Source of the DNA: a bacterium
Lineage (GTDB): Bacteria; UBA8248
NCBI GenBank assembly: GCA_963692865.2
Contig: OY843592.1
Coordinates: 3,200,001 to 3,264,000 of the forward strand
Direction of reading: 5' to 3'
Length of the DNA: 64,000 bases
A model generated the notes under the pieces. That model was not told the DNA's origin and did no database searches. It worked only from the letters and a program-made list of their open reading frames with translations. The first letter of the stretch is position 1. Each line of letters opens with the position of its first letter. A program made the position numbers and the translations under genes. Positions 19,495 to 61,376 of the stretch are shown here, in pieces.

Positions 19495-19552
19495 GAGGAC
19501 AAATGTAATCAAGACGCAAGCGGGTTGGTTACGACCCCTGCGCACCCTGTCG
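19495..19552 (+). repeat. Copy A of the conserved non-coding att-arm-like element
   Basis: ATGTAATCAAGACGCAAGCGGGTTGGTTACGACCCCTGCGCA; 37/50 ungapped identity to copy D by hand count. Confidence 0.75.
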
Positions 19553-19643
19553 CGGCCGGGTCGCGGCGACGGACCGAAAAGTCCGGGCGGCCCGCGCCGC
19601 CGCCGCCATCCGGGTCGGCCGGATATCCCTACGCATCCGTGGC

Positions 19644-19678
19644 AAAAAAGGGCGCCGCGGGACCGCTCCCGCGGCGCC
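19644..19678 (-). terminator. Intrinsic terminator of the autotransporter gene
   Basis: 12-bp stem GGCGCCGCGGGA/TCCCGCGGCGCC followed by a T6 run on the minus strand. Confidence 0.8.
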
Positions 19679-19705
19679 TCCCGCCTCATTCGCCGCTGGC
19701 GCGGC

Positions 19706-22700
19706 TCACCACCGCTTCGAGCCGCTCAGGTACACGCCGCCTCCGGTCCCCGCGCCGCCGCCGGGTTCGGTGAGGCTGGCCTCGAGGCTCACCTCGGTAT
19801 CCGCGCCGGACTTCCAGCGCGCCCCGGTGCGCCAGGTTTCACCGCTCCCGGTGAGCGCCACCCCCGTGTAGGGCGTCAGCAGGCCGCGCCAGGCGTCGAG
19901 CCCCCAGGCCGCCTCGGCCTCGAAGCCCGTTCCGGGCTCGAAGCCTCCTCCCGGCGGGAAGCTCCGGAGGGCTCCCGACCACAGATGTTCCGCGCCGCCC
20001 GCGGCCGCCCCCCATGAGGAGCCGGCGCTCAGCGAGAGCCCGCGCCCGTCCTTGCCCGGCGCGTAGCGCACCGAGCCGCTCACGCCCCATTCCCCGTAGT
20101 CGCTCTCGGAGTGCGCCAGGAGCCCCCGCGCGCTCATCTCCACCGAGAGGCCGCCCGAGGCGTAGCGTAGCGAACCGCCCAGCTCCAGGCCGCCGCCCGT
20201 CTCCGCGTCGCCACCCTCGTGGCGGAGCCCGAGCTCCACCGAGGGCGTCAGCACCGCGCCGCCGGCCAGGCGGACGGAGCGCGAGCCCTCGAGCAGGAGC
20301 CGCACCCGGCTCGTCTCCGCCTCGGCCGCCGCCAGGTCCGGCGCGGCGTCCGAACGCGTCCGCGTCACGAGCAGGTCCGCGCGCAGGGCCAGCTCGAACC
20401 CGCCCGGTTCGCGGGCGGGCAGCAGGACGCCCCGCGCGCCCGCGGCCGCCATGCTCGCGTCGAGGCCGGTCTCGTGCGAGACCCCGTCCGCGGGTTTCAG
20501 CGTCAGGTCGCCCTGCCCGTGGCCGACGACGCCCCAGAGCGTGAACACATCGCTCACCCGGTAGCGCGCATAGGGGTAGAAGCCGGTGAGGGCGCTCTCC
20601 ACCTCGCCCGAACAGCCCGCGTCGCAGGCGCCCTGCGTCGCGTAGCTCCCCTCGCCGGAGCTTCGCGAGAGCGCCGCGCCCACGAGCCAGCGGCCGCGCT
20701 CGAAGTCCGCTCCCAGCGTCGCCGTCGTCACCTCGCCCTCGAGTGTGAGCGCATCTTCCGCGCCGTCGAAGCCCGAGTGCGCCCCCCGGCCCCAGACCGA
20801 CCAGCGCGGGCCCGCCTTCACGTCCCCCGCGGAGGCGAGGTGGAACGAACTGGCCAGAAGCAGGGCGCCCATGTCGAACTCGCGCCAGTGCTGCTCCTCA
20901 TCCTCCCCCGTCCGCGCGTTCAGGGCGCGGACGTACTTCCCCGCGCCCGAAAGGAACGAATCCCCCGCACCGGGAAGGGCATCCGGACCCCCCGCGGGAA
21001 AACCCTTCCCCTCCGCGGAGAGGCGATGGCCGCCCAGCCTCACGCCGGGCGCGGAAGCGCCCCGAAGGCGCTCGCCCACCGCGCCGACCACCTGGTCCGC
21101 CACCGTGCGCCCGAAGCGCGCCGTCCACGCCGCCGGGATCGGGTCGTCGTTGACGATGGTGCCGACCCCTTCCCCGTCGGCGATGGTCGCGCCCCGCGCG
21201 TCGGAGAGCACCAGGTAGAAGGTCTCCGGCCCCTCGTCGTGCCAGTCGCCGATCAGGTCGACCGTGACCGTCTTCCGCGTCTCCCCCGGAGCGAACGACA
21301 TCCGGCCGTACTCTGTCTCGTAGTCTCCGTAGAGGCCGTACAAATCGCCCCTCGCCGTTCCGTCGCGCGTCGTGTAGCTCACGCTCACCGGGTGCGCGGC
21401 CGGCGGCGACAGCGTCACCGTGAAGTGCATCTCGCCCGAGGCGTAGGGGTGGCCCTCGTCCGCCTGGGCGTCCGACACGCGGAGCGCCGGCTCGGCCGCA
21501 GGCGGCGAGGGCGTCGTCGTCTCAGTCTCCTCCTCCGGTTGCTGCGTCGCGGCGCCGCCCCCTCCGAAGACGGTCAGCGTGAAGTCTCCCGTCCCGGGGT
21601 CGAAGGTCGTCGCCTCGATGGTGTACGTCCCCGCGTCGAGCGTGCGCCTGATGCGAGAATCGTACCCCCGCCCGCCGTCGTCGTCGTACTCGAGCGCCCT
21701 GCCGCTGCGCTGCTGGGCGCCGGAGCGGAGGTAGAGGAACGCGTCGGTGCGGGAACCGAGATAGATGGTCATCTCCCGGCGCTCCGCCAGCGTGAGCTCG
21801 TACCAGCGCGCGTGGCGGCCTCTGCGGTCGATCGAGTCGCATCCGGCCGCCCAGCGGCCGGTCACGCTGCCGTCCCCGGCGAGGCGCTGCGTGCACCGGG
21901 ACTCCGACGGCGCCTGCCCCGGACCCGAGGCGGCATCGAGCGTCACCGACACCGGCGCCGAGGGCCGCCCCCGCCCGGCGTCGTTCACCGCGCGCACCCG
22001 GAAGCGGTAGGTCCTGCCGTTGGCGAGGCCCGTCACCGTGTGGCCGGTGGCCAGGCCGTCGCCGGCGTCGGTCCACACGCCGTCACGCTCGACCTGCCAC
22101 CCGGTCACGCCGTCCATCGCGTCCCAGCGAAGCGTCACCTGCCGGTCGCCCGCCTCGGCCCCGAAGCCGGTCGGCTGCGCCGGCGCCGGCGCGGTCCTGC
22201 CCAGGCCGCTCACCGTCAGGGTGAACCGACCCTCGTCCAGGCGGCGATAGGTCGTCGTCTCGACGGTGTAGGTCCCCGCCGCGAGCGTGCGGACGATCCG
22301 CGAGTTCCGGCTGCCCCCCGCGTCGTCGTTCCAGGCGAGCGGCGTGCCGTCCATCCGGTCGACGCCCGACCAGAGGTAGAGCCAGGGATCGGCGTCGCCG
22401 GACCGGAGGTCGATGGTCACCGTCGACCGCCCGGCCAGCGTGAAGCGCCAGTAGCGCGTGGCGTGGCCGGCGCGCTTGGCCGACGCGCAGTCCGGCGCCC
22501 AGCCCCGGGTCCCGAAGCCGTAGTCCCCGGTCCAGCGTCCGGTCACGCTGCCGTCCCCGGTCAGGCGCCCGCTGCACACGGCCGGCGGCGGCCCCACCGG
22601 CGCGGCGGAGATCGCGTTCGACCACGGACCGGGCACCCACTCGATGTACCTCGTGGCGGGGCCCCGCCGCATGGCCCGCACCTGGAATTGGTAGGCGGTG

Positions 22701-24327
22701 CCGTTGGTCAGGCCGGTCACGACGCCGCTGGTGTCGCCGCCGTAGCTGCCCGGGAACCAGTCCTGCCTGACGATGCGGCTGCCCTCCAGCGCACGGTACT
22801 GGTAGCCCCGCGCTCCGGTAACCGTGGTCCAGCGCAGGGTCATCTGCCCGTTGCCCGGCTCCGCGCGCAGGTTGACGGGCGTCGAGACGCTGGCCGTCTG
22901 AAAGGTCACGCTCGCGATCTCGTTCGCCGTGTTGCAGCCCGTCGCCGAATACGCCTTGTAGGTGTAGGACGTGCCCGCGGTCAGCGAGCTCAGGTCCGCA
23001 TGCGTCGTGCCCGCGGCGACCGAGGTGCAGGTCCCGGCGATCGGGGCGGTCCGCTTGTACCACCACGCGGACGTGTGATTCGTGATCGTCAGACGTGCAC
23101 TCGTCGCCCTGATAGGATTGGCGGTGAGGGCCGGGCCAGCCGTCAGCGTCACCCCGCCGCCCCGCATCAGGTTCACCGGGGTCGAGTAGGTCGTGCCCGA
23201 CTTGCAGTAGGCCAGCGCACGGTACTCGCCGGCAGAGGTCGGGGTGTAGCGAAGTTGGTAGACGCCGGAGCCTGTGCTCACGTAGCTTCCCACCCGAGTC
23301 GTCAGCGCGGTGCTCTTGTACCAGCCGATCTCGGCCGTGCCGGTCGTGCAGCTCACGACGCCCGGAGTCAGAACTCCTGTCAACCTGCCTCTCGCGAGAC
23401 CGAAACTCTCGTTCCAGGCGTTGCTGCCGGAGGGCTTGTTGCGCTGGGCGTAGGTGTAGACAACGTTAGTCAGCACGGAACGGGTCAGCGTCGGGGGGGT
23501 GGGGGTCGTCGACTGGGTCGTCGCGTTGACGGTGAACTTGATGGAGCCGGTCCACGATCCCCACGGACTTGCGGAATTGGGTTTGCGGCGAGCAGCATTC
23601 GCGATGGTCGCGGCGCTCCACCCGCCGGTGCCGGTCTCCGCATTGCTATTGGTAAAATTAACATCTCTGGACTCAGCAGTCGACGAGGTTTTGACCTGTA
23701 CAAAATAAGTGGTGTTGCCGTTCAGGGTGATGCCGCTCGCGGTGAGGGTCTTCTGTCCGGCGGTGTTGTCGATAGTGCCGGTCAGGTTGTTGCCGATCTG
23801 AGTCCCGGGATTGCTGGCGTTGGTCCCGGTGCCAGGGTTGTGGATCGATACAACCAACTGTACGGCATTACCGACGTTGGCTAGCACATCCAAGACGACG
23901 GAGTTCAGCGTGTACCTGTCGGTGGTGGTGCCGCCGGTGGTGAACGCATTGGCAAGCAAGGTATCAGCGTCTGCGGCAAAGTTGACGCTGGTGGTTTGCG
24001 AAATATTGCTGACGCTGACCGCCTGCGCCTGCGCCGGGGCGGGCGGCAGCAGGGCGAGGGACGCCAGCAGGGCGAGGGCGAGGAGGCCGGCGGCCCGGCG
24101 GGCGCTTCCCGCGAGGCGTCGGGCCGGGCTATCTAATCGGAGTTCGGAGTTCGGAGTTCGGAGTTCGGAGTTCGGAGTTCGGAGTTCGGAGTTCGGAGTT
24201 CGGAGTTCGGAGTTCGGAGTTCGGAGTTCGGAGTTCGGAGTTCGGAGTTCGGAGTTCGGAGTTCGGAGTTCGGAGTTCGGCTCTTACCCAATCTGGCAGA
24301 TACCGCCGGGGCTGTCCACCTGGTCAT
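19706..24327 (-). CDS. Large autotransporter/adhesin (FN3, two PPC-like, Calx-beta, beta-barrel); currently frameshifted in a 5' heptamer tract
   Basis: The long ORF 19706-23959 stays open upstream through a signal peptide (RRAAGLLALALLASLALLPPAPAQA) into the repeat. The RBS+ATG at 24327 is in another frame. Terminal aromatic residue (SKRW). Confidence 0.85.
24137..24280. repeat. Simple sequence repeat (GGAGTTC)x20
   Basis: 20 perfect heptamers at 24139-24278 plus partial flanks. Confidence 0.97.
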
Positions 24328-24593
24328 GTCATCGCCTCCCTTACGTTTTTCTTGTTCACCTTTCCTTTCCCGGAGTTCCGAGACGGCGTCGATCCGGGCG
24401 GACCGCGCCGCCTCATGCTTTTACCATTTGTTATAGTATACACCATCGCATGCGATCTTTTGTTAAGTATTCGTGTTATTATCTCGTATTATGATGTGAA
24501 TATGATAAAACTTGGCCCAAATCAGCAAAAAAATGCGGGCTTGCGGCGGGGCGACGTGCGGAACGGGGACATGAGGGAAACGGCCGCCCGGCG

Positions 24594-26936
24594 TCACTCC
24601 GGCGCGGCCATGCGGTAGCCGACGCCGCGCACGTTGAGGACGTAGGAGGGCGCGGCGGGGTCGTCGCCGAGCTTGCGGCGCAGCTTCTTGACGACGGTGC
24701 GCAGCCGCTCCGTACGGCCGGTGCGGCTCTCGCCCCAGACCCGGCGCAGCAGCGTATCGTAGGTCAGGACCCGCCCGGCGCCCGAGGAGAGCGCATGCAG
24801 CAGGTCGTACTCGGTGGCCGTGAGCCGGACCTCGCGGCCGGCCAGGGTCACGAGGCGCTGCTCGTGGCGGACGGCCAGCTCCCCGAGCACGAAGGGTTCG
24901 GGTCCGGCCCGCCTGCGGAGCGCGGCCCGGATCCGCGCCACGAGCTCCGTCGGCGAGAAGGGCTTGACGATGTAGTCGGCGGCGCCGCTCTCGAGCGCCC
25001 GGGCGACCGTCTCGTCGCGATCGTAGGCGGAGATGAAGATGACCGGCAGATCGGCCAGTCCGGGGACGGTTTCCATCAGTTCGATCCCGTCGGTCCCCGG
25101 GAGCATCAGGTCGAGCAGGACCAGGCGGGGCCTCTCGGCCGCGATGACGCGTGAGAGCTCCCGGTGGTCGGCGGTCACGACCGGGGCGTAGCCCGCCCCG
25201 GCGAGGGCGTCGCGGAGGTAGCGGAGCGTCTCGGGGTCGTCGTCCACCGCGAGTACGGTCATGGATTCGCTCTCCTCGCGGGGGGGACGGGAAAGGCCCG
25301 GGGCGGACGGATCGGCGGCCTCTTCGGCCGCGGGGAGCGTGAAGGTGAAAGTCGCGCCCCGGCCGATGCCCGCGCTCTCCGCCCGGATGCGCCCCCCGTG
25401 CGCCTCCACCAGCCCCTTGCAGATGAACAGGCCCAGGCCGTATCCCCCGCCGGCTCCGCGCTCCCCCTCATCGCCGCCGAAACCGGCATACTTCCGGAAA
25501 AGACGCGGCAGCTGCCCGGCCGCAAGCCCCCGGCCCTCGTCGGAGACCGAGAGCGCCACGTGCACGCCGTCGCGCTCCGCCGACACCCGGACGGGCGACG
25601 TCCCGGGAGAGTGCCGGGCGGCGTTGCGCAAAAGGTTGTTCAGCACCTGCTCGATGCGCTGGCGGTCGGCCATCACCCGGGGCAGGTCCGGCGGGAGGTC
25701 GATCAGCACGGCGTTGCGCCCGCCGCCCGAGACGAACGCGTTCCTCGCCCGCTCCACCAGGACGCCCGCGTCGGTGGGCTCGGGAGAGACCGACAGCCTG
25801 CCCGCGTCGATGAGCCCCGTGTCCAGCAGGTCGGCGACCAGGCCGATCATGTGATCGGCCTGCCCGTCGATGAGGCGGAAGAACTCGCGCATCTCGACCG
25901 GACCGAAGACCCGCCCGGCGCCGAGCACCGCGGCGGTCGAGCCCTTGATCGAGGTCAGCGGCGCGCGCAGCTCGTGGCTGACCATGCCCAGGAACTCCAC
26001 GCGCATCCGCTCGAGCTCCTGGAGCGGCGCCATGTCCTGCATGGTGACGACCGTCGACACCACCGCGCCGTCCTCGCCGTGGATCGGCGTCGCGTTGATC
26101 AGCGCCGTGACGCTGCGCCCGTCGGGCACCGAGAGCACGACCTCCTCGGCGCGCACCGTCTCGGCGCCGCTCAGCACGGCCGCGAAGGGCAGCTCGTCGA
26201 GCGCGACCTCGCGCCCGTCGGCGAAGCGGCACATCAGCACCTCGAGCAGCGCCTCCACGGGGCGGCCCGCGGTGCGCAGCTTCTCCCCGATCCGCCTCAT
26301 CTCCCGGTTGATCGACACCGGGGCGCCGGTTTGTGCGTCGAACAGCGCCACGCCGACCGGCGAGGTCTCGACCAGGGCCTCGAGGTCGGCCCGCGCGCGC
26401 CGCTCGGCGCGGTGCGCCCGCGCGTTGGCGAGCGCGGCCGCGGCCTGGCTCGCGAGAAACCCCAGCACCTCCCCGTCTTCGCCGGTGAACGCCCCGCCGC
26501 CTTCCTTCCCGGCCAGGAAAAGGCTGCCGACGTGCGTGCCGCGATGGCGCATCGGCGCGCACAGGAACGTCCGCCACGGCAAGCGGTCCGGGGAGAAGCC
26601 GAGCGCCCGCGCGTGGGCGCGCAGGTCCGTCAGGCGCAGCGGTTCGGCCAGATCGCGGAAGTGTTCGAGAAACCGCGGCCCCTCGGGCCAATCCACCAGC
26701 CCCCGGTGCTCCCGGGGGGCGATGCCCGAACTCCTGAAGCCGTCGGGCCCGCCCGACTCGTCGAGGGTCACGACGACGCCGTGGCGCGCGCCGCTCAGCC
26801 CGCGGGCGCTCTCGAGGACTTCGCGGAGCACGGTCCCCGGGTCGAGGCTCGAGGCGATGCGCCCCAGGGCCGCGCACAGCCGCGAGAAGCGCTCGTGCAG
26901 GGCCGCCTCGCGCCTGGCGTTATCGAATTCGGTCAC
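24594..26936 (-). CDS. Hybrid GAF-PAS-histidine kinase-REC-OmpR winged-helix regulator
   Basis: VSHELRAPLT (H box), NLLRNA, DEGRG, GLGLFI; REC AVDDD/LLDLMLP/KPF; LTATEYDLL..VRGVGY. GTG 26936 has a GGAGG RBS. Confidence 0.9.
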   Translation of the reverse strand: MTEFDNARREAALHERFSRLCAALGRIASSLDPGTVLREVLESARGLSGARHGVVVTLDESGGPDGFRSSGIAPREHRGLVDWPEGPRFLEHFRDLAEPLRLTDLRAHARALGFSPDRLPWRTFLCAPMRHRGTHVGSLFLAGKEGGGAFTGEDGEVLGFLASQAAAALANARAHRAERRARADLEALVETSPVGVALFDAQTGAPVSINREMRRIGEKLRTAGRPVEALLEVLMCRFADGREVALDELPFAAVLSGAETVRAEEVVLSVPDGRSVTALINATPIHGEDGAVVSTVVTMQDMAPLQELERMRVEFLGMVSHELRAPLTSIKGSTAAVLGAGRVFGPVEMREFFRLIDGQADHMIGLVADLLDTGLIDAGRLSVSPEPTDAGVLVERARNAFVSGGGRNAVLIDLPPDLPRVMADRQRIEQVLNNLLRNAARHSPGTSPVRVSAERDGVHVALSVSDEGRGLAAGQLPRLFRKYAGFGGDEGERGAGGGYGLGLFICKGLVEAHGGRIRAESAGIGRGATFTFTLPAAEEAADPSAPGLSRPPREESESMTVLAVDDDPETLRYLRDALAGAGYAPVVTADHRELSRVIAAERPRLVLLDLMLPGTDGIELMETVPGLADLPVIFISAYDRDETVARALESGAADYIVKPFSPTELVARIRAALRRRAGPEPFVLGELAVRHEQRLVTLAGREVRLTATEYDLLHALSSGAGRVLTYDTLLRRVWGESRTGRTERLRTVVKKLRRKLGDDPAAPSYVLNVRGVGYRMAAPE

Positions 26937-27264
26937 TGTCGCGTCCTCCCCCCCTCCGGGGGGATATGCGGGTGGCGTTGCGCGCCGGTTCCGGTACCGG
27001 CGCAGGGTATTCGGCAAGAATATCACAGAAGTCACGAAATAAACACCGTATCTGACCTGAAAATCACCCTGAAATCATAAAAGCCCGTTGTCCGGGCAGC
27101 TTCGGGTAAAATAAAATGCAGTCTCACCCGGAACGGACCGGGAAAGGCCCCGGGTCCGCGTGGCGGGACGCGACGACGGAGAGGACTCGAGCCCGTGAAG
27201 AAGCGCGCCGCAAAACCCCCTCCGGTTCCGTGATCCGACCGCCGAGGGGAAGGGAGGCATCCGC

Positions 27265-29067
27265 ATGAAGAGCACGAAGAGGCTGGCCCGGCGGGCGGCG
27301 CCCGCCCTCGCGCTGGCGGCGATGATGACCCTGGCCGCCTGCGGCGGCGGGGGCGGCGGATCAAGTCCGCCCGCGGTGATTCCACCGCCGACGCCGACAC
27401 CAACACCAGATCCGACTCCAACGCCAGACCCGACACCGGACCCGACACCGACTCCGGATCCGGATGAGCGGCGCGGAGAGTTGGCGCTCCCCGGGCTCGA
27501 GCTTATCCCGCTGGATAAGATCAAACTCACAAACAGGGAAATACAGAAACAGTTCGTGGTGCTTGACGGCAGTAACGAAAATCATGAGCGCCCAGTTCGC
27601 GAAACGGCGTGCAAAGCGTATGTAACCGGCTGTAAGGATTCAAACGACTATTCCGGCAAGCTTATCGGAAGAAACGGCACCGTTCTGGCGAATCGGACAA
27701 ATGGCTCAACGCCGTTTTCCTTTCTCGGGACGCGAGCTATTGCCGGTAGACCTGAAATAGATTGGTACTTACAGGAAATCCGAAGAATGGGTACGGTGAA
27801 AATTACTACCGAGTCAATACAGCCAGGATTGGGGGGTGTCATGGTTGAGCATTACGGCGCTTCATTGCCGTTTTTGTCGGTGATTGCTGCCGGTAATATA
27901 CCAACCGATTCATTTACTGGTTTTGATGAGCAGTACTCAGCAAGGGCTCAAAATACTCGAAACGCCATCGCAGCTAACAAGGCGATATATGTCGCCGGGC
28001 ATATGCGGGATGCGAACGGAAACTATATTCGCGATCCGTCTTCAAGCGGATGTAAGGGCGGCGACAGCGGATGTATTTGGGCGCCGTTCACTACTGAAGG
28101 TGTCGGAGTAGGTACCAGTCTCTCCGCTCCGAGGTTCGGCGCGGCACTTGCCTCAGTGCTTAGTGTGTTTCCTGACACGAAGGACACGGAACTTGCCCGT
28201 TTCGGCAAGGCGTGTGCCAAAAAGTCAGGAAACGGCATTGAGGCACTGCTTGCAAAATCAGGCGGCGTCGGCGTCGCCGACTTCACCTGCATGGGTAGTG
28301 TCGTCGGTTCGCTCACCAATCTGCCGACAGGCGCAACAACAACGGTGACTGTGAACGGACAGACCGTTACTGTCGGCGGAAGAAGTGTGTCACTTCCCTC
28401 AGAGGGGAGTGTCGCGTCATACATCACCAGAGAAGTGAGCAATGGTGCTGTCGGTCAGGCGATACCTGCTGGTGTGGCATACGCGCAGTTTGAGAAAGAT
28501 GACGAAACCGCGCCTACCCGCATCAAACTAACCGGCTTTACCGGCAGTGATAACGGCTTTTCTTTAAACGCCGTGCCGAACAATTCAGGATCGCTATCCT
28601 TGGTCGGTCTGCAGAAAGCGGGAGATTTTTTCGCGCTTGCCGCCGTTGGGGAAAGGTCTGACTTTTTCGGTTTCTCCAAAGGACACGGAGAAGTCCTCAA
28701 TGCAGAAATCTCCGCCGGACACAAAAACGCGTTCCTTCGTTTTGAAAAACAGATTTCAAACGGCGGGATAGATGTTCGGGATGCGGAAGGTGAATCATTC
28801 GGGTTCACGCTCCGTAAAGGATTTGACCTGACCGAGAGAGTGTTCCTGTCCGCCGCCGTCCGCGGCGACAGATTTCTCGGCGGGGAAGCAAGTATTCCGT
28901 TCGGCAGGGTTGATCTGTCAAAGAGCGGATGGGATCATCGCGTATCCCTGTCTTCCGACATTCTGGTTGACAAAAACGCCACCGTGAGTATCTCGGCGGG
29001 TACTCGCTTCCCGGCAACGGGAGACAGTGAAACAGACATATCCGCCAAATACTCCCTGCGCTTCTGA
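27265..29067 (+). CDS. Lipoprotein with Pro/Thr linker, subtilase (S8)-like domain and C-terminal beta-barrel
   Basis: Lipobox LAACGGGG; PTPTPD repeats; VVLDG, NH, AAGN, GTSLSAP; ends in YSLRF. Confidence 0.75.
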   Translation: MKSTKRLARRAAPALALAAMMTLAACGGGGGGSSPPAVIPPPTPTPTPDPTPTPDPTPDPTPTPDPDERRGELALPGLELIPLDKIKLTNREIQKQFVVLDGSNENHERPVRETACKAYVTGCKDSNDYSGKLIGRNGTVLANRTNGSTPFSFLGTRAIAGRPEIDWYLQEIRRMGTVKITTESIQPGLGGVMVEHYGASLPFLSVIAAGNIPTDSFTGFDEQYSARAQNTRNAIAANKAIYVAGHMRDANGNYIRDPSSSGCKGGDSGCIWAPFTTEGVGVGTSLSAPRFGAALASVLSVFPDTKDTELARFGKACAKKSGNGIEALLAKSGGVGVADFTCMGSVVGSLTNLPTGATTTVTVNGQTVTVGGRSVSLPSEGSVASYITREVSNGAVGQAIPAGVAYAQFEKDDETAPTRIKLTGFTGSDNGFSLNAVPNNSGSLSLVGLQKAGDFFALAAVGERSDFFGFSKGHGEVLNAEISAGHKNAFLRFEKQISNGGIDVRDAEGESFGFTLRKGFDLTERVFLSAAVRGDRFLGGEASIPFGRVDLSKSGWDHRVSLSSDILVDKNATVSISAGTRFPATGDSETDISAKYSLRF

Positions 29068-29086
29068 ACGCGATAGAACTTTCTGC

Positions 29087-29121
29087 ACGGCCCGGCAGGG
29101 GCGACCCTGCCGGGCCGTTTT
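29087..29121 (+). terminator. Hairpin/terminator after the subtilase-autotransporter
   Basis: ACGGCCCGGCAGGG/CCCTGCCGGGCCGT stem followed by T's. Confidence 0.75.
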
Positions 29122-34209: not shown

Positions 34210-34216
34210 TCTCACC

Positions 34217-38033: not shown

Positions 38034-38053
38034 GTGACGGTTCCAGTAAGACG

Positions 38054-43846: not shown

Positions 43847-43850
43847 AACT

Positions 43851-44609: not shown

Positions 44610-44611
44610 GC

Positions 44612-45577: not shown

Positions 45578-45584
45578 TTTTGCC

Positions 45585-47327: not shown

Positions 47328-47332
47328 GTCAC

Positions 47333-49771: not shown

Positions 49772-49787
49772 GTTCTAATCCCGCTTT

Positions 49788-52609: not shown

Positions 52610-52659
52610 CGTTCACTCCTTTCAGTGATTGGGTTTTCCAGTCGGTGGTTCGGTTGCCC

Positions 52660-53034: not shown

Positions 53035-53070
53035 GCCTTTCTCCTTCGCAGAGGGTTAACGGATGCGCTT

Positions 53071-53269
53071 CTTGGCGTCCCATTTTCAGCACGTAAGGGC
53101 ATCGGGCGACGTTTCCGATGCCCGTAGGCGGGCGAATCAAGGGCCTGTCATTTTCCGGGGGGTTCCCGAAAAACACGCCTCATCGTTTTTTGGGGGGTAC
53201 CGGCAAATGATGGCCGCCTGCGGCCACCCTTTTTTCGCCTGCCGTTCGTGCTAAAATGGGGACGCTAAG
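53071..53269. promoter_or_regulatory. Long branched inverted-repeat structure (Frpo/ssi-like)
   Basis: Outer arms CTTGGCGTCCCATTTTCAGCACG / CGTGCTAAAATGGGGACGCTAAG, with several nested stems. Confidence 0.6.
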
Positions 53270-53563
53270 AGAGAGAAGGTAGTGTCGCCACCGGGATACA
53301 GGAGCCTTTGGGTTTCACGATGAAGGCGAAGCTCATCGGGAAACAGTCTCTCATGCTGCGGAAAGGGTCATTCCGGGCCGTCCTTTCCGGCCCGGAATTC
53401 CCGCAGCGGGGGGTAGACTGAGCCACCCTTCTGGGTATGGAGTGGTTGCAGGCGCAGGCCGATCTTCCGGGAACACGGTTCATCGTTCGCGGAACAGGAG
53501 ATTTACCGGGTGTTCCCGGTAGACGGGAGGGGCCAGCCGGACGACTTCCTCTGGATAACGAGC

Positions 53564-53600
53564 AAAGAAAAAGGGCCGACGCGCGAGGGCGCCGGCCCTT
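53564..53600 (-). terminator. Intrinsic terminator after ssb
   Basis: AAGGGCCG..CGGCCCTT stem with a T-rich tail on the minus strand. Confidence 0.7.
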
Positions 53601-53607
53601 GAAGCAC

Positions 53608-54054
53608 TCAAAACGGGATGTCTTCGCCTACTACGCCTGCGGGAACAGCCACGTCAGCCGTCTCGGCGTGCGCGCCGTTACCGTTGACATTGCCGTTCCC
53701 GTTCACCTTGTCGAGGAACTGCACGCGTCCGCCCGGCGCGATGAGGATCTCGGTCGAGAACCGATCCGAGTCTTCCTCGTCCTTCTTCCAGCGGCGGGTC
53801 TGGAGCTTGCCCGCCACGTAGACCAGGCGGCCCTTCTTCGCGTGCTTTTCGAACATATCCACCAGGCCCGGCTGGAAGGTGACGACCCGGTGCCACTCGG
53901 TCTTCTCCACCCGGTCACCCGACTGCTTGTCGACGTAGCCCTCGTCCGTGGCGATGGACAGGTTCGCGACGCGTCCGCCGCTCGCGAGATGGTTGATGGT
54001 GACGTCGGCGCCGAGACGCCCGATCAGTTCCGCCCTGTTGAGTCCGAATGCCAT
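53608..54054 (-). CDS. ssb: Single-stranded DNA-binding protein
   Basis: NRAELIGRLGAD, TEWHRVV, GKLQTRRW, acidic tail EDIPF. Confidence 0.95.
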   Translation of the reverse strand: MAFGLNRAELIGRLGADVTINHLASGGRVANLSIATDEGYVDKQSGDRVEKTEWHRVVTFQPGLVDMFEKHAKKGRLVYVAGKLQTRRWKKDEEDSDRFSTEILIAPGGRVQFLDKVNGNGNVNGNGAHAETADVAVPAGVVGEDIPF

Positions 54055-54131
54055 TGTAGTACTCCTTCGTGGTGAGAGTGTGAAAAACTGAAGGGAGGGA
54101 GAGAGCCTTTCTCTACGCCCCCCGGTTCGCC

Positions 54132-54266
54132 CTAAACGCTGCAGAACTCCTCCGCCTCGCCTTGCGCCTCGTCACGCAGCTTGCGGATCGTGTACGCGTC
54201 GAGTCCGAGTTCTGCGAGCAGTTCGTCCGCGGTGGGAACGTCGACGTCGTAGTCGTTCTCGTACAT
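54132..54266 (-). CDS. 44-aa acidic hypothetical protein
   Basis: GAGGAGG RBS before the ATG; MYENDYDVDVPTADELLAELGLD...; co-oriented upstream of ssb. Confidence 0.6.
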   Translation of the reverse strand: MYENDYDVDVPTADELLAELGLDAYTIRKLRDEAQGEAEEFCSV

Positions 54267-54942
54267 GGCCAGCCTCCTCTCGGGGTTGTCGCCGGCGTCG
54301 GGGCCGGGAGACCGTCTCCCTCTCCCCTGCCGGGCCTTTGCCCGGCTCCCCGCTTCGCTCCACCTCTCCCCGGGGAAGTACTCATCCCGTGAGGGACTGC
54401 CCACGGAGCGCGAACGGCCTCGGCCCCCGCCGGGGCGAACCGTAGGCGGGCGCGTCTCGATGCCCGCCCGTGCGCGCGGCCGATTCAGGATTCGGATGGA
54501 GGAGGCACGGGAGAAAGGAGACGCATCGGGTGCTGTGGAGTTCGGGAGGGGCGCTCATGTTGCCGCAGGCAGGATTCTTCGCAGGCCCGGTTCGCGTCGT
54601 CCGGGCCGCACCGTGCCGTATTCAGTCGCGGGAGGGGCGGCCTGTTGCCGGCTCACCGGGGCCGCCTGCGGCCGTGGCGGCGCCTCAAGCGGGACGGCCT
54701 GAATGGACTGCGACAGTACCCCCCCGGCGCGGATCCCCCCGCGTCCGGACGGCGGTCGTCAAACCCTCCCTCCCGGTCGGGTCCGGGCCCCGTTCCTGGC
54801 GAGACAGGGACGGACGTCCCAGGGCCGGCAATACGTATCCGGCGGTCGGCAGGCCGGCGGCGCAGGTCCCCCCGCTTCGCTCGGGCTGTCCCCCCGCCGG
54901 CGGGTTGCCGGCGGCACGTGCCCGGCGAACCGGCGCAAGTGT

Positions 54943-55752
54943 CTACCAACTGGCATACCTGGCCATCACCGGAGTATCTTCGACGATTTCCACATCCTTG
55001 CGGGAGAGTTTCGTGAAGGCGAGGCACATCGCGACCTCCTCCCAGGAGTCGAGGGGGCCGTGCTCCTCGCCCGTGGCGAGCTCGACCACCGTGTAGCGCG
55101 GCGGATGGACGGGCATTCCCTTGTGCTCGCCCGAGGAGTGATACGACCGGCGCGCGCAGCTCGCGCATCTCACCCCTGCGTCCGCATCGGCGCCGCAGTC
55201 AACACATGCTCCGCGGGCGCGCCTGCCGTGATAGCGCGCCCGGCTCGCTGCGTTCTTGCGCGGACGGCGTTTCACGTCCCTTGCGGCGCACGAGGCGCAC
55301 GTCGAAGCCTTGTCGATGACTTCCGCACTGCACCGGCCGCATCGCCCGGCGGCCCGCCGCCTGGCGTAGAGTTCCCTCTCTTCAGCGCGCCTTGCCTCCC
55401 GGCAGGCCTCGCAGACGGCGCCTCCTTCGACAGGTGGAACTTTTCCGCAACCGGTGCAGAGGCCCGCCTCGCGTCGTTCGCGCCTGCGTTTTTTGTTTCT
55501 CTCCCGCGCCATGCGCCGGCGGCTTTCGGGGCAACGGCCTCCGTATGCTGCACCCTCCCGCCTGGCCCTGTCGTAGCGGGCGCGTTGGGCTTCCCGGTTC
55601 CTCTCCAGGCATGTAGCGCAAAGACTTCGCTCGGGAGCGGGCCGGTGTTTGCCGCACTTGGGGCACATGCCCCGCGCGCGGCGTTCCGCCACCCGCTTCC
55701 TGTGGCGTTCGCGCTCGAACCTGCGCCTGGCTTCCGGGTCTTTATATGGCAT
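54943..55752 (-). CDS. Cys/Arg-rich protein with repeated CxxC..CxxC zinc-ribbon units
   Basis: GGAGG RBS; MPYKDPE; four GxCxxC-x8-11-CxxC units. Confidence 0.7.
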   Translation of the reverse strand: MPYKDPEARRRFERERHRKRVAERRARGMCPKCGKHRPAPERSLCATCLERNREAQRARYDRARREGAAYGGRCPESRRRMARERNKKRRRERREAGLCTGCGKVPPVEGGAVCEACREARRAEERELYARRRAAGRCGRCSAEVIDKASTCASCAARDVKRRPRKNAASRARYHGRRARGACVDCGADADAGVRCASCARRSYHSSGEHKGMPVHPPRYTVVELATGEEHGPLDSWEEVAMCLAFTKLSRKDVEIVEDTPVMARYASW

Positions 55753-55823
55753 CGTGCGGTCTCCTCCCCCGCGTGTCTGGAATCCGTCCGGCGCCGGGCC
55801 GGCAAGACGTCTTGCGGCATACC

Positions 55824-56123
55824 TCACCGGCACAGCATCTTGCCCCACACGAGGTGTTCTCCCCACAGTTGCAGGCCGCTGCCGGGAACCTTGAGCCCCG
55901 TGCAGACGATGAGTTCATCGCGCGCGGGCCGCATCTCGCGGACCGCACGCCGCGATGCCGTCACGCGCTTCCTCCTGCGCCCGCCCTTCTCGCCTGCGGG
56001 CAGGGGCTTGAGCTCACCCCCGCCCGAGGATTTGTAGCGCCGTACCTCGTATCGCTCGTCCGCCAGGCCACGGCTGAGGAGATGGGTGAGGAAGGTTCGT
56101 GCTTCGGGTCCGGGTTTCCGCAT
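55824..56123 (-). CDS. Hypothetical protein
   Basis: AAGGAGG RBS, 99-aa ORF, co-oriented with its neighbours. Confidence 0.45.
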   Translation of the reverse strand: MRKPGPEARTFLTHLLSRGLADERYEVRRYKSSGGGELKPLPAGEKGGRRRKRVTASRRAVREMRPARDELIVCTGLKVPGSGLQLWGEHLVWGKMLCR

Positions 56124-56240
56124 CGCGCGCCTCCTTGGGTGGGTGGATGATGGCGGCGGAGAACGCCCTCTCCCGGACGCCCGGCCGCGCCTCCTCCCGG
56201 CCAGGCTCCGCCTCTCGGTGGCGCAGGGCGCTGCGGTCTT

Positions 56241-56582
56241 CTACGCGAACCAGGACCCCGGGTCGTGACCGTGGAGTTCCTGCTCCTCGATCTCCCTGCG
56301 CCAGGCGTAACGGCCCGTGCGCGTCGCCCAGTCGAAACGCTCGCCGCGCCCGCCGGGGAGCCGGTAGCGGGTGAAGGCCGTCCAGTCCCCGCCCCGGAAC
56401 CCCCGCCACAGGACGCACGAGAGCGCTGTGAGAAGGCACCAGAGAACCGCACAGAACCAGACGGCCCCCAGGAGGCGGAGACCGCTCCCGGCCGCGAGAG
56501 AGCAGATTGTGGCGAGGAGTGCGAGGCCAGGTCCCGCCAGGACGAGGGACCGGGTGTACGGGGATGGATTCTTGTCGCTCAT
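56241..56582 (-). CDS. Hypothetical two-TM membrane protein
   Basis: GGAGG RBS; two hydrophobic segments. Confidence 0.55.
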   Translation of the reverse strand: MSDKNPSPYTRSLVLAGPGLALLATICSLAAGSGLRLLGAVWFCAVLWCLLTALSCVLWRGFRGGDWTAFTRYRLPGGRGERFDWATRTGRYAWRREIEEQELHGHDPGSWFA

Positions 56583-57357
56583 GGGTCGCGCCTCCGGGAT
56601 TGCGGGTGAGGGGAATGCGGGCGCCGCCCGGCCTCTCCGGCCCGGACCCGCGCCCCCTCCCGGCCCGGCTCGTCCTCTTCGGGGCGCAATGCGCACCCGG
56701 GGAGCACGGTGGAGACCGCCGACGCCGAAAAAAACGCATCCGGATGCCTGTCATTACGAAAACAAAATGAATTGAACCCGAAACAATGCGTTAAATTCAC
56801 ACTGCTTCGTTTATTCCTGGATGCGATCCTGAGAGAATAGCGGGAAATTCCGCCGCTTCGGGTCGTTCCTTTCGTGGCGCGTTGATGGACTGCCCCGGGG
56901 AGAGCGGCGGGCCGCCCCTTGCGGTACCCTGCTCCGTGGCGGACGTGCCGCGCGTCAGGCTTGAGGCTCTCGCCGGCGCCTTGGCCGACCGGAAGGGGTG
57001 GCGGCTTTTGCCGAAAAGGCCGTTCAGGGGAAAACGGGTTGCGGTGACCCTGGGTCGTGCCCCCTTGAACCGGCCAGCCGCCCCTCCCATACGGATATTT
57101 CCCGTATCCGGGGAGGGGTGGCGCTTTCGGGCGGCGGTGCTGTTCCTCTTCGGCAATTCCCGGGAGTTGCTCGCGCGCGGAGGATGAGCGGCGCGTGCAT
57201 CCCGTCGATTGCCGCGAAGCGATGCCGATCGCGCGACTGCCATGACGTATTGTCGATAGCCATATGTTTTGCAACCCCGCCGGAAACGCCATAGAATGGC
57301 CCCTGGTTCGGCACCGCCCGGTTGCGATGCAATTACGGAACGTACGAGGTGGGCTCC

Positions 57358-57570
57358 ATGAACCGGGAGGGCAAGCACGGACACGCCAGGCGGACCGTCG
57401 ACGCGCTGCCGCCCGCCTCGGGCGGCGCCGTCTTCCGGGACCGCGGCCTGCCCGGGTTCGGGGCCCACGCCTCGGGCCGCCAGGTATGCGTCGTCCGGAC
57501 GAGGGGGCCGGACGGCGGTCCGGGGCGCGTCTCCATCGGCCGTCACGGCGAGACGTCCGCGGTGATATGA
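57358..57570 (+). pseudogene. Truncated integrase N-terminal Arm-DNA-binding domain
   Basis: RRTVDALP..AVFRDRGLPGFG..SGRQVCVVRTRGP..RVSIGRHGE aligns with KRTVDAL..AVFWDRELAGFG..GRKTYVVQSRGP..RVTLGRHGE of the 59987-61165 integrase. Confidence 0.8.
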
Positions 57571-58739
57571 TGCGTTACTTGTACATGATCGGCCCTCTCG
57601 CGGGCCTCCTGCTGCTCTTCGCGTGGGCCGGCCCCGCCGCCGCGGACGGCAACTTCTCGCAGCGCCCCGGGTTCGCCGCGTATTTCGCGGCCAACCCTCC
57701 GGCCGGCGCCGCCGGTCCGGCCGATCGGGCCCTGGCCCGCCGCCACGCGCCGCGCTTCCACCTGCCCGCCGGCCACGAAGGTCCCATCGACTTCTACCGC
57801 GACTACATCGCCCACGGCTACCTGATAACGGGCGAGGGCGTTCGCATCGACGGCCCCACCGCCGGTGACCTGAACCGCTACCGCGACGACGCCCGCGCCG
57901 AGTTCACGCACGCGCCGGGAGGCGCCGCGCCCCGGCCCGTCGTCTACGCCGCGGTGGAGCGTACCGGCCTGTGGGGGCCGGAGGAGCCGGACCGGCCGGC
58001 CGGGGAATTCACCGTCCTCACCTACCACCTGGCGTTCCGGGTGAGCGGCCTTCCGGCGGGGTTGTCCCCGGTCGCGGCCATCCCGCTCCGGCTGGTGGCG
58101 GACCTCGACGACTGGCACCAGCTCGACCACTACACCGCCGCGTTCGTGGTCCTGGCCGCGGACGGGCGTCCCGTCGCCCTGACCCTGCAGCAGCACAACT
58201 ACCTGCGCACCTACCTGGTCGGCGAGTCGGTGGAGCCCGGGCCCGACGGGCGCTTCGAGGTCGACGTGGCCATCCGCTCGAACGAGCTTTACCCCCACGC
58301 TGCGGGACGGACGGTGCGCCGGGCGGTGCGGTTCATGGACCATGACGCCCAGGCCTTCATGATGGGTTTCGGCGAGCGCCCGATGATGTCGGCGGACGAC
58401 GTCACCGAGCCTGTGCGCACCGTCGACTACGAGCTCGCCTTCCTCCCCGGTTCCGACGCCTTCTACTCGTTCCAGGGCTTCCTGGGCGAGCGCCGCAGTT
58501 TGCCCGGCCGCGACGGCCCGCCCGGGGCCCGCTACAACACCCTGCCCGAGCTCAAGCCCCTGCCCGCGCAGATTTTAGATGGCTACTGGCGCGCGGGGAA
58601 CGAGGGCGACTGGGCGCGGTACCGGGACAGCCGGGAGGACGGCTCCGGCCCGGCCGGCTTCGCGCGGGCGCAGGCGGGGGTGTTCCACCAAAACCTCGGC
58701 TGCCTGCGCCGGGAGCGCAAAGGCTGCGAGCTGCAGTAG
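57567..58739 (+). CDS. Secreted hypothetical protein
   Basis: Signal peptide ending AGPAAA-D; GC3-rich coding pattern; His/Asp-rich motifs DWHQLDHY and QQHNY. Confidence 0.75.
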   Translation: MMRYLYMIGPLAGLLLLFAWAGPAAADGNFSQRPGFAAYFAANPPAGAAGPADRALARRHAPRFHLPAGHEGPIDFYRDYIAHGYLITGEGVRIDGPTAGDLNRYRDDARAEFTHAPGGAAPRPVVYAAVERTGLWGPEEPDRPAGEFTVLTYHLAFRVSGLPAGLSPVAAIPLRLVADLDDWHQLDHYTAAFVVLAADGRPVALTLQQHNYLRTYLVGESVEPGPDGRFEVDVAIRSNELYPHAAGRTVRRAVRFMDHDAQAFMMGFGERPMMSADDVTEPVRTVDYELAFLPGSDAFYSFQGFLGERRSLPGRDGPPGARYNTLPELKPLPAQILDGYWRAGNEGDWARYRDSREDGSGPAGFARAQAGVFHQNLGCLRRERKGCELQ

Positions 58740-58799
58740 CGGCGCGGGCGACCCTCCCCCGAGCCTTCCTGCGCCCCTGTCGCCGTCCCCGCCGCCCGG

Positions 58800-59990
58800 C
58801 TAGAGGGCGGCGCCCTGCAGCAAGTCTCCGGCGATGCTCTCCGCGACGCGCCCGGCCGCCTCCTGGGCCGAATCGCGAGCGAGGTGCGCGTAGCGCGCCG
58901 TCGTTTCCAGGCGGCTGTGGCCCAGGAGCTTCCCGATGACGGGGAGCGGCTCGCCGAGCGCAAGCGCCCGCGAGGCGTACGAGTGCCTGAGATCGTGCAG
59001 CCTTACGCCCTCGAGGCCCGCGCGCTCCCTGATCGCCCGCCAGGCCTCGTCGACGTTCGCAAGGCGCGTCCCGGGCTTCCTGCCCGGGATGACCCAGGGG
59101 CCGTCGTGGGCGCTGAGGAGACCCGTAAGGAGTTCGACGGCCTCCGGCGGGAGCGGGACGGCCCGCGCGCCCGTCTTGGAGTCGGGCAGCCTCACTTCGG
59201 CCTCCTCAATGTCCACGTCCTCGCGGCGCAGCTTCAGTATCTCGCTCCTCCTGCACCCGGTCAGCGCCAGGAGCCGGATAGCCGCCACAGCGGACGCGGA
59301 GGCGCCGCCCCGGGCCTCCGCCTCGTCGAGCGCCTCTCCCAGGCGGGTGAACTCCGAATCCGTCAGGAACCGCTCGCGCCTGCGCTCGGGGTATTTCACC
59401 AGGGCGCGGCAGGGGTTCGATGCTCCCTCGGGAACCATGCCCCAGCCCGCGGCCTGCTCGTACATCGCGGACAGGACGCGGAGCGCCGTGTTCGCCACCG
59501 CGGGCGTCTCGTAGAGGTTTTCATGGAATTCCGCCACCCGCGCGCGGGAAAGCGCGGCCAGCGGCGCCCTGCCCAGGACGGGCAGGACGTGGCGGTCGAT
59601 CACCGAGCGGTAGAGCGCGGCTGTGCCCGGCTTGCACCGCACCGAGACGTATTCGGTGAGGTAGCGCGCGCACAGTTCTGCCACCGTGGGGCCGGCCTTG
59701 GGGCTAAGCGGCTCAGGCACCGCCTCCTCGCCCGCCTTGATACGCGCGATGATGCGGGCGGCGCGCTTCCTCGCCTCATCGGCGTTGATCACCCCGTGGC
59801 GGCCCACCGCCACCCTCCTGGGACCTTCGGGCCCCCGCGCCTGGGCGACGTAGACTTTCGAGCCGGTGGGATACACCCTCACCCCGAAGCCCGTGAGTTC
59901 CCGATCCCAGAAGACCGTGTCCTTTTTCACCGCGAGTTTCCCGACCGCTCGGTTCGACAGCGTCCCGTGTTCAGTTTTCGCCATCTTCAC
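58800..59990 (-). CDS. Tyrosine recombinase/integrase with Arm-DNA-binding domain (copy 2)
   Basis: TGCRRSE, DSKTG, HDLRHS, LLGH, ARYAH; GTGA overlap with copy 1 (alternative ATG at 59984). Confidence 0.93.
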   Translation of the reverse strand: MKMAKTEHGTLSNRAVGKLAVKKDTVFWDRELTGFGVRVYPTGSKVYVAQARGPEGPRRVAVGRHGVINADEARKRAARIIARIKAGEEAVPEPLSPKAGPTVAELCARYLTEYVSVRCKPGTAALYRSVIDRHVLPVLGRAPLAALSRARVAEFHENLYETPAVANTALRVLSAMYEQAAGWGMVPEGASNPCRALVKYPERRRERFLTDSEFTRLGEALDEAEARGGASASAVAAIRLLALTGCRRSEILKLRREDVDIEEAEVRLPDSKTGARAVPLPPEAVELLTGLLSAHDGPWVIPGRKPGTRLANVDEAWRAIRERAGLEGVRLHDLRHSYASRALALGEPLPVIGKLLGHSRLETTARYAHLARDSAQEAAGRVAESIAGDLLQGAAL

Positions 59991-61165
59991 CCGGCCCTCC
60001 CGTTCGCGATGTGGGCGCCGATGCTCCCGCCCACCCGAACCGCCGCCTCCCTCTCGGCCTCTCGCATCAGGTGCGCGTAACGCGCGCTCGTCGCGACGCT
60101 TGCGTGGCCGAGCAGTTTCCCGATGGTGTAGAGGCTCTCGCCGAGCGCCAGCGCACGCGACGCGTAGGAATGCCTCAAGTCGTGAAGTCTCACGTCTGCG
60201 AGCCCCGCCCGCTCCCTTATCGGCCGCCAGTAGTGGTGCAGGCCCGTCAGGCGTTTTCCCGGTCTCTGGCCCGCGATCACCCAGGGGTTGTCGCCGGAGC
60301 GGGGGATGGCGTCCAGTATCCCGAGCACGGGCTTCGTCAGGGGAACCATGCGGGGACCCGCCTTGGCGTCCCTGAGTCTCAGATCCCCCGCCGTGCGGTC
60401 CACGTCGTCCCACCTGAGATTCAGTATCTCGCCCCTGCGGCACCCGGTCAGGACGAGCAGCCGGATGGCCGCGGTCGCGGGCGGCCATATCCCGTCTTCG
60501 GCCTCGGCCTGCCTGAGCGCACGGCCCAGCCTCCGGTATTCCGCAGGCGTCAGGAACCGCTCGCGCAGCTGAGTCCTGTAGCGGCGAAGCGCCTTGCAGG
60601 GGTTCCGCCCGGGCGGTACCAGCTCCCACGCTTCCGCCAGGGTGTACATCCGCGAGAGGAGGTGGACCGCCCGGTTCGCCAGGACCGGCGTATCGCGCAG
60701 GCCGTGATGGAGTTCCGCGGCTTGCGCCCCGCCGACTTCTCCCAGTCCCATACCGCCCAGGGCGGGCAGGACGTGCTTGTCGAGCACCGTGCGGTACGCG
60801 GCGACGCTTGCGGGTTTGAGGTGTCTCTCCACGTGGGTGCGCATGAAGCGCTCGGCGAGTACCGCCACGGTGGGTTCCACCTCGGGCGGTTCGGCTGCCG
60901 GCTCCTCACCGCGCTTGATGCGGTCGATAACGAGGGCGGCCTTCTTCCTGGCCTCGTCGACGGCCATCTCCCCGTGGCGGCCGAGCGTCACGCGCTTGGG
61001 CCCCGATGGTCCCCGGGACTGCACAACGTAGGTTTTTCTGCCCGTGGCGTGGACGCGCACCCCGAAACCCGCCAGCTCCCGGTCCCAGAAAACCGCGTCA
61101 TTCCCGTCGACCTCGAGCGCGTCGACGGTGCGCTTGGTTAGTTTCAGATCGCTTCGCTTGGGCAT
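59987..61165 (-). CDS. Tyrosine recombinase/integrase with Arm-DNA-binding domain (copy 1)
   Basis: TGCRRGE, DAKAG, HDLRHS, LLGH, ARYAH. Confidence 0.95.
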   Translation of the reverse strand: MPKRSDLKLTKRTVDALEVDGNDAVFWDRELAGFGVRVHATGRKTYVVQSRGPSGPKRVTLGRHGEMAVDEARKKAALVIDRIKRGEEPAAEPPEVEPTVAVLAERFMRTHVERHLKPASVAAYRTVLDKHVLPALGGMGLGEVGGAQAAELHHGLRDTPVLANRAVHLLSRMYTLAEAWELVPPGRNPCKALRRYRTQLRERFLTPAEYRRLGRALRQAEAEDGIWPPATAAIRLLVLTGCRRGEILNLRWDDVDRTAGDLRLRDAKAGPRMVPLTKPVLGILDAIPRSGDNPWVIAGQRPGKRLTGLHHYWRPIRERAGLADVRLHDLRHSYASRALALGESLYTIGKLLGHASVATSARYAHLMREAEREAAVRVGGSIGAHIANGRAG

Positions 61166-61180
61166 CCCGTTTCCTCAAAT

Positions 61181-61376
61181 ATGTAATCAAAACGCATACA
61201 TTCGGCATCAAGCTGGAGGGTATTCAAGCATATGTGTGGCGAAAACGCAAGGGGAAACGGGGTGGGGAGTAACGGAAATATGGTATTATAAACAATCGTT
61301 TATCGTATATATACGAGGTCAATCGCACTATTGCGCGGCCAAGAGGTTCATGACAATGATTTATCGAATTGTTCAG
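61181..61376 (+). promoter_or_regulatory. Integrase-proximal att arm and putative attR core
   Basis: ATGTAATCAAAACGCA 16 bp upstream of the int start; IHF-like AAACAATCGTTTA; core repeat at 61360-61376. Confidence 0.6.

Follow-up and report, generated by a model that had tools for sequence, protein, structure and literature searches.

A repeated 175-nt unit as a candidate recombination site of islands with paired tyrosine integrases

In a 64,000-nt stretch of a bacterial genome of the lineage UBA8248 (GenBank assembly GCA_963692865.2, contig OY843592.1, positions 3,200,001 to 3,264,000; hereafter the window, in whose numbering positions are given), a non-coding sequence occurs four times in a genomic island that also encodes two adjacent tyrosine integrases. 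What is this sequence, and what is it to the island? An initial annotation, made from the letters alone, had taken the four copies, A to D, for integrase arm or attachment (att) sites, either left by serial integration of related elements or used as a cassette array. Judged by comparison of sequences, the most likely answer is that the unit is a candidate recombination site of the islands rather than a gene or an RNA. No description of the unit or of the island family was found in the literature searched at abstract level.

The repeat unit and its conservation

The four copies were found on the + strand at the places claimed, and they clustered as one repeat family in a repeat search of the window. 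Recounting the ungapped identities gave the values counted by hand before (B/C 44/58, C/D 44/58 and A/D 37/50) and 44/58 for B/D, against a mean of 14.5/58 for random 58-mers from positions 27-51k. The 14-mer ATGTAATCAAAACG had 14 matches with up to three mismatches versus 3.2 expected, a number reached in 0 of 100 shuffles, and a single-query search with unit C recovered B (E 1e-10) together with copies in other genomes.

Three of the copies are complete units. B occupies positions 30380..30557 (+), with CGCCCGTTTA at 30380, the central motif described below at 30497 and TGTCGG at its right end; C occupies 33112..33290 (+), with the motif at 33229; and D occupies 37130..37295 (+), with the motif at 37237 and a left part that is 10 nt shorter. 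Each comprises a 50-nt left part, a core-like block and an arm like that of copy A. The latter (19444..19560, +; GTAATCAAGACG motif from 19505) is a truncated unit without the left 50 nt. The shorter spacing in D had been noted before and holds, but the distances from CGCCCGTTTA to the 58-nt core, given as 114, 114 and 104, were measured as 107, 107 and 97 nt in B, C and D; from the start of CGCCCGTTTA to ATGTAATC they are 115, 115 and 105 nt. The further motifs said to be shared by B and D (TACCGCCCGG and TATAC.GCTTTGC) are present, but they lie outside the unit in an apparent end remnant of an IS66-family insertion sequence (IS), so that the conserved unit spans about 175 nt and not the ~300 bp first proposed.

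A collection of 116 non-redundant units from 12 genomes was assembled. Their identity is about 65-75%, similar within and between genomes, while internal blocks are strongly conserved, a pattern that points to constraint and not to a recent burst. From left to right the blocks are CGCCCGTTTA, TTGATAT(T/C)ATTG, GTAATCAAAACG followed by AAGCGG, CTGCGCA and TGTCGG. The best conserved part is GTAATCAAAACG with AAGCGG; signed positions below are counted from this motif. The edges of the unit carry a weak inverted repeat, GAC(A/G)GTGGGG near -100 and CCCTGTC near +50. Two guesses about the origin of the complete units were discarded: partial BLAST matches had looked like half units meeting at the motif but proved to belong to full, diverged units, and a second target repeat as the source of the left 50 nt was dropped because that part was never found apart from the unit.

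A profile built from A-D detected 15 loci in the 3.94-Mb contig, and the family is thus not confined to the island. One extra match falls on a small contig, itself a strain variant of the main one. Seven such contigs (C2-C8, 17-50 kb) are 96-99% identical to regions of the main contig, from which we conclude that the assembly mixes strains, in keeping with its contamination figure of 6.7%. With unit C as the query, matches were obtained in 19 of 41 related genomes (15/22 in the genus and 3/7 in a second family belonging to the class). A related genome holds as many as 17 of them, often clustered on one strand. A 16-base pattern scan of genome contigs returned 108 stretches, mostly chance matches, and a few records of metagenome-assembled genomes with 2-4 matches, labelled 'bacterium', 'uncultured Nitrospinaceae' or 'Nitrospinota'.

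Several searches addressed a gene or an RNA. Rfam gave no match for the unit at the gathering score, RNAalifold predicted no consensus structure on either strand with 13 and 48 copies (0.0 kcal for 48 copies), and no reading frame stayed open across 44 copies. A small peptide gene on the reverse strand was considered and rejected, as B and C are alike but A, D and many other copies have an in-frame stop, and a tRNA or tmRNA fragment acting as a repeated att site was set aside because the window holds neither. The units had been described as not attC-like, and the data agree: there is no consensus fold, and single-strand DNA folds of B, C and D (z-scores -0.51 to +0.67) are no more stable than those of shuffled sequences.

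Island ends and the integrase pair

Both ends of the island were mapped to a 75-nt repeat, R61, of which the contig holds at least 61 copies. The repeat is intact at the homologous locus in a relative (G002) and split in the window: its left part, at 19380..19443 (+), forms the chromosomal side of the left junction, and its right part, the 12 nt GTTCAGGAATTC at 61371..61382 (+), lies where homology with a paralogous island, I1, stops. The 11-mer TTTATCGAATT is present at both ends (19433-19443 and 61360-61370). As R61 is split there, intact in G002 and flanked in this way, the island extends from about 19433 to 61370, and sequence comparison shows that it integrated into a dispersed 75-nt repeat by crossover within TTTATCGAATT. 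The motif itself had also been considered as the crossover of the island; this was rejected, since homology between the window's island and I1 passes the motif on both sides, and the crossover lies in TTTATCGAATT, inside the dispersed repeat.

The locus and its flanks were also compared with other relatives. In all 18 genus members searched, the gene on the left flank has a single copy. In one of the relatives, G007, position 19201 is followed after 590 nt by position 68200 (window numbering continued to the right) and the sequence from 19201 to 68200 is absent, which indicates 49 kb of extra DNA in the present genome. Beyond the right end of the island, 6.8 kb of extra DNA (G000:C1:3261383-3268190) precede the DNA shared with G007 and contain repeats, an aminotransferase gene, an amidase gene and an open reading frame of 587 aa; this stretch ends in a diverged unit with its motif at 68103, and may be a second element in tandem.

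The same target recurs elsewhere. The right half of R61 terminates 7-8 of 9 islands, a left half adjoins 10 of the 116 units versus 1 in control windows, and in an array with no integrase nearby (G008/G006) the last unit is separated by ~155 nt from a degenerate copy of the right half of R61. The repeat is AT-rich, has iterations like AATTTATC and ends in TTTCAGGAATTC; a GCAAATGCGGGGAAATGCG motif often stands at a distance of about 100-250 nt, and the two may belong to a larger element resembling a miniature inverted-repeat transposable element (MITE).

At the left junction the arm contributed by the island is copy A, which from position -74 on matches the far end of I1 at 97% identity. At the other end, the integrase-side arm (61166..61370, +) carries GTAATCAAAACG from 61183, followed by CATAC, a form that we call class II. 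The initial annotation had noticed a shared motif beside the integrase pair, and ATGTAATCAAAACGCA is indeed found at 61181-61196, 15 nt from the start codon at 61163-61165. The motif lies upstream of the first integrase gene in 9 of 9 islands examined, in its class II form in all 9, and ~205 nt of the arm are conserved. In island I4 (L011, G000:C1:3809200-3809320) two tandem integrase-side motifs of the variant ATGTCATCAAAACGCATA were observed 78 nt apart, with an IS66 element after them. The motif thus stands in the arms of both mapped island ends, 62 nt inside the end at copy A and 177 nt inside the end on the integrase side, which is the geometry of arm-type sites; in their placement, copy A and the integrase-side motif bear out the earlier proposal.

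The first integrase of the pair (59987..61165, -) has an Arm-DNA-bind_3 and a catalytic domain according to Pfam, and the second (58800..59980, -; start codon uncertain) has Arm-DNA-bind_3, SAM-like and catalytic domains. The arm-binding N-terminal domain PF13356 matches both (E 1.4e-11 and 4.2e-08), and with the integron-integrase model TIGR02249 they reach 47.8 and 42.1 bits, the cut-off being 265. From this architecture and the placement of the motif we infer that GTAATCAAAACG serves as an arm-type site to which the integrases bind with their N-terminal domains.

A genome search with PF00589 showed four tandem pairs of arm-domain tyrosine integrases, and 10 of the 15 unit loci lie less than 60 kb from one of them. 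In relatives the number of pairs per genome rises to about 13-16. Across the 41 genomes, unit and integrase family occur together in 18 and are both missing from 19; the unit stands alone in 1 and the integrase in 3, of which two match it weakly. This distribution suggests that the unit co-occurs with the tandem-integrase family, as had been predicted. The strand of the units is opposite to that of the integrases in 20 of 20 units from seven related islands. A stretch in G006 has five units on one strand with no integrase in view.

Breakpoints at unit edges and competing readings

The reading that we favour, and to which we give an even chance, is that the unit is an att-type DNA site of the island family, with copy A and the integrase-side arm as the working arms of the two junctions and the internal units as joints at which cargo has been joined or exchanged. 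The unit would act as a cis-acting, double-stranded DNA site of islands with two adjacent arm-domain tyrosine integrases. The island entered the dispersed 75-nt repeat by the crossover in TTTATCGAATT, copy A being the arm that it brought to one junction, while the arm at the opposite junction holds the integrase-side motif. The complete units B, C and D are placed at joints between cargo modules of foreign composition, modules that may have been joined or exchanged by recombination at the two edges of the unit. The island would then be a platform on which cargo accumulates, for instance CRISPR-Cas, a gene for a caspase and a toxin-antitoxin pair.

This reading was examined by comparing the flanks of all 116 units: 12 pairs share the left flank only, 13 the right flank only and 1 both. 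Identity in seven of the 12 left-sharing pairs (about six independent events) is lost at -111, -111, -111, -107, -106, -105 and -92. The break is within CGCCCG|TTTA, each flank keeping its own version of the left half. Among right-sharing pairs, identity sets in at -93, at +51, at +54 and, in one cluster of three genomes, at -1/-2, the rest being IS66 insertions or the pair of copy A and I1. The break zones hug the weak inverted repeat at the unit edges. One unit body, from -84 to +41, is 98% identical in two otherwise unrelated contexts. Syntenic arrays of G006 and G008 differ by a replacement of 7 kb versus 10 kb that begins in the left zone of a unit and stops in the right zone of the following unit.

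Contigs from a second study were also compared; copy A is not covered, and as contigs they could not show rare excision products. They match positions 30635-37282 at ~98% (115 differences in 5.3 kb), and from 37282, the right edge of copy D, they depart from the window and extend for another 407 and 2257 nt. In a further contig, foreign sequence is attached at position 33305, ~30 nt past copy C.

A number of observations weigh against the favoured reading. Breaks fall in three zones (about -107, -1, and +41 to +54) with no single crossover, and 5 of the 12 left-sharing pairs diverge before the unit, at -141 to -192. Only 4 of 68 unselected block ends (at least 1 kb, at least 88% identity) are within 60 nt of a unit, about 1.4 being expected; most of the 68 lie in the backbone. 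The region that varies between the window's island and I1 extends from a point 1.3 kb ahead of B up to the backbone, neither border being at a unit, and no CGCCCGTTTA-like site was found at the border of backbone and cargo. The claim that the copies mark breakpoints of gene content thus stands for some breaks at unit edges, but not for the borders of this region nor for many block ends elsewhere. The joints listed include no unit-to-unit joint, excision or circle junction, forms that contigs drop when rare. Five of the 15 loci of the genome are far from integrase pairs, among ordinary or housekeeping genes; island G011a has no unit in 60 kb; in G008a the orientations are mixed, with 3 of 8 units on the - strand; and the co-occurrence of unit and integrases is overstated by the counts, because related genomes are not independent.

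Unit edges are also where IS66-family elements are found. In the window, the end remnant mentioned above (30567..30700, +) starts with GTAAGCG just after copy B, and was identified against the end of an intact IS66-family element beside another unit (i3far). Such ends (GTAAGCG/GTAAACG...) directly follow the TGTCGG end in at least 8 of the 116 units, and these positions suggest a target preference of the IS66 family for the spot after TGTCGG. An intact IS of 3375 bp (Pfam DDE_Tnp_IS66; L009, G000:C1:3484017-3487391) has a 100% identical twin (L011, 3809358-3812732), which adjoins the integrase-side arm of another island.

Among the rival explanations, the one that survives best, although we hold it to be unlikely, regards the unit as a regulatory module, a promoter or operator bound by an island regulator that also controls the integrase, and ascribes the shuffling to homologous or illegitimate recombination and to gene conversion through the short stretches of identity in dispersed copies. 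The consensus contains an extended -10-like element, TG-n-TATTAT inside TTGATATTATTG, and the pattern of conservation agrees with it at the TG and, within the hexamer, at the second base (A) and the sixth (T), but the hexamer is missing from A, B and D. A regulatory role would also account for the motif in the 5' region of the integrase gene; the break zones overlap conserved blocks, and the patch confined to the unit body resembles gene conversion. On the other hand, the units are mostly placed between convergent gene ends, and the first downstream open reading frame runs in the same direction in only 39 of 112 units and in the opposite direction in 71. A promoter scan detected no sigma-70-like site in B, C or D, while the cargo of D has its own at 37391-37420. 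Homologous exchange, moreover, should favour the longest identical block, the motif, and only one cluster of pairs breaks there.

It is quite improbable, in our estimate, that the internal units are inert scars of whole related islands that integrated serially at one site and then lost integrases and backbone, with no mobility of single modules. Tandem accretion at one att site is well established (PMC5812530, PMC3146451, PMC11470126), copy A shows that a unit can be an island end, relatives accumulate integrase pairs in the numbers given above, and G011a has two backbone copies less than 60 kb apart. Accretion predicts hybrid junctions at about -65, with target-repeat halves or integrase remnants, and none are found at B, C or D, so that simple serial integration of whole islands, one of the two routes first proposed, finds no support at the internal copies. 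None of the seven left-sharing pairs breaks near -65, and 62 of the 116 units have a sharp, conserved left edge at 50 nt from the core-like block, which is not what random deletion would produce.

We consider it very improbable that the unit is a small, non-autonomous, MITE-like mobile repeat that prefers these islands and intergenic DNA, its position between modules being incidental. Its discrete edges with a weak inverted repeat at both, the 98% identical body in two unrelated contexts and the abundance of other short repeats in the genome would fit such an element. Such a repeat is harder to reconcile with copies that are 60-75% alike and conserved in internal, not terminal, blocks, with a strand opposite to that of the integrases in 20 of 20 units, and with the lack of a transposase consistently nearby. 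The inverted repeat is weak and just 7-8 nt long, both flanks are shared by only 1 of the 26 flank-sharing pairs, and neither a presence/absence polymorphism nor a filled and empty pair was seen among them. Least probable of all is that an RNA from the unit pairs through GUAAUCAAAACG(CA) with the integrase mRNA leader and tunes integrase synthesis. In favour of it, 16 nt of copy A are complementary to the leader except for one mismatch, the complementary stretch being 15 nt ahead of the start codon and beside a GAGGA ribosome-binding site, and no other part of the unit is as well conserved as the motif. Against it, the unit has neither a conserved structure or terminator nor a predicted promoter, and a DNA site readable in either orientation accounts for the same facts.

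A bolder version of the att-site reading seems doubtful, and we put it forward tentatively. The islands might be a cassette system of a non-integron kind, in which one integrase moves the island into the 75-nt repeat and the other inserts, excises or swaps modules at unit edges. Each island would then be a self-mobile library that grows by taking up genes for defence and surface functions, and arrays that lack integrases would be carried along in trans.

Backbone and cargo of the island family

Islands of the family share one order: the integrase pair, a backbone of ~8 kb with a gene for a single-stranded DNA-binding protein (SSB) and a SLOG-like gene, variable cargo, and the far end. In the window the conserved backbone spans 51217..58799 and includes SSB at 53608-54054 (-), the SLOG/YspA-like gene at 51656-52609 (-) and unknown genes, with a G+C content of about 70%. 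At the far end, a distal conserved module (19706..29099, -), 94% identical to I1, encodes by Pfam a large surface protein (fn3, Calx-beta and PPC domains) and a hybrid histidine kinase/response regulator, and includes part of an unknown 600-aa gene. Between the surface-protein and hybrid kinase genes, ~22 tandem TCGGAGT heptamers occupy positions 24137-24290, a tract that could be prone to slippage.

The G+C content is 65-75% in the backbone (51000-61000) and the distal module (20000-27000) and 41-56% in the cargo (27000-51000), the genome being at about 62%; this contrast indicates that the island is a mosaic of at least three sources. Modules hold several genes each, the smallest measuring 2.7 kb and the largest at least 13 kb. 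Between C and D, the cargo encodes an 865-aa protein with a caspase domain (34217..36814, +; Pfam PF00656, NCBIfam NF047832), for which no relatives were found in 40 related genomes or metagenome contigs. The cargo after D (37443..50411) begins with a DUF433/PIN-like pair and a CRISPR array, followed by cas2, cas4-cas1, cas5, cas7, cas8b, cas3 and cas6 on the - strand. PADLOC gave no match for 12 cargo and backbone proteins.

The CRISPR array (38610-41654) has 43 exact repeats of 36 nt. Two adjacent spacers of 35 nt at 38820-38961 are identical, one repeat-spacer unit being duplicated. Compared with the genome and all loci collected, the spacers gave only two partial matches of 22 nt, none of them in islands, and a spacer that seemed to resemble the motif was dismissed as a chance partial match.

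Significance and relation to known systems

If the unit is active, an uncultured lineage would have a second, independent route to gene-cassette libraries, one that uses double-stranded sites and lambda-type integrases and handles multi-gene modules including CRISPR-Cas. A high-copy repeat as the target would then also explain how more than 10 copies of the island can be present per genome. Together with the integrase-side arm, the unit provides sequence tags for island ends and module borders in metagenome-assembled genomes, and an integrase pair with defined sites is a candidate tool for the insertion of large DNA. Should the unit be only a scar or an operator, what remains is a well-mapped island family with an unusual repeat as its target.

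Among known systems, the unit is most like the arm sites of lambda/P4-type elements, combined with tandem accretion or cassette arrays. As in lambda/P4-type attP, both integrases have an N-terminal arm DNA-binding domain, each arm holds, at 62 or 177 nt from the crossover, a short motif (where binding is predicted) that points the same way in both, and the integrase gene adjoins one arm. Unlike in those elements, there are two paralogous integrases in tandem, the target is a dispersed repeat with at least 61 copies and not a unique gene or tRNA, and complete additional arm-bearing units lie inside the element.

Tandem accretion is represented by arrays of integrative and conjugative elements (ICE), integrative and mobilizable elements (IME) and cis-mobilizable elements (CIME), by the ssrA islands of Dehalococcoides and by composites of the staphylococcal cassette chromosome mec (SCCmec). 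There, too, same-orientation att-related repeats separate cargo blocks that include defence genes, and some arrays have no integrase of their own nearby, much as described here. The repeats of accretion arrays are copies of the short att core, and the junctions are hybrid at the crossover. The internal units of the present islands are instead about 175 nt long and 65-75% alike, with breaks at unit edges; B, C and D have no target-repeat halves, and no internal hybrid att junction is found at them.

Integrons share with these islands a single recombinase locus at one end of an array and a same-orientation series of diverse, often unique cargo, including defence genes, in which each block has its own diverged site. 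The differences are that the integrases here are not IntI (42-48 bits versus a cut-off of 265), the sites have no single-strand fold, the modules are multi-gene, the array is far from the integrase promoter and the whole element is integrative. Integron cassettes are bordered at one fixed point of the site, whereas breaks in the present units fall in three zones.

The pdif modules of Acinetobacter plasmids, recombined by XerC/D, provide a further parallel. Short recombination sites bound exchangeable accessory modules there, as proposed for the present islands, and in both a pair of paralogous tyrosine recombinases may act together. The pdif sites are 28 bp long, alternate in orientation and are served by the Xer proteins of the host, whereas the sites in the present islands are about 175 nt long, lie in one orientation and are accompanied by element-borne integrases with arm domains.

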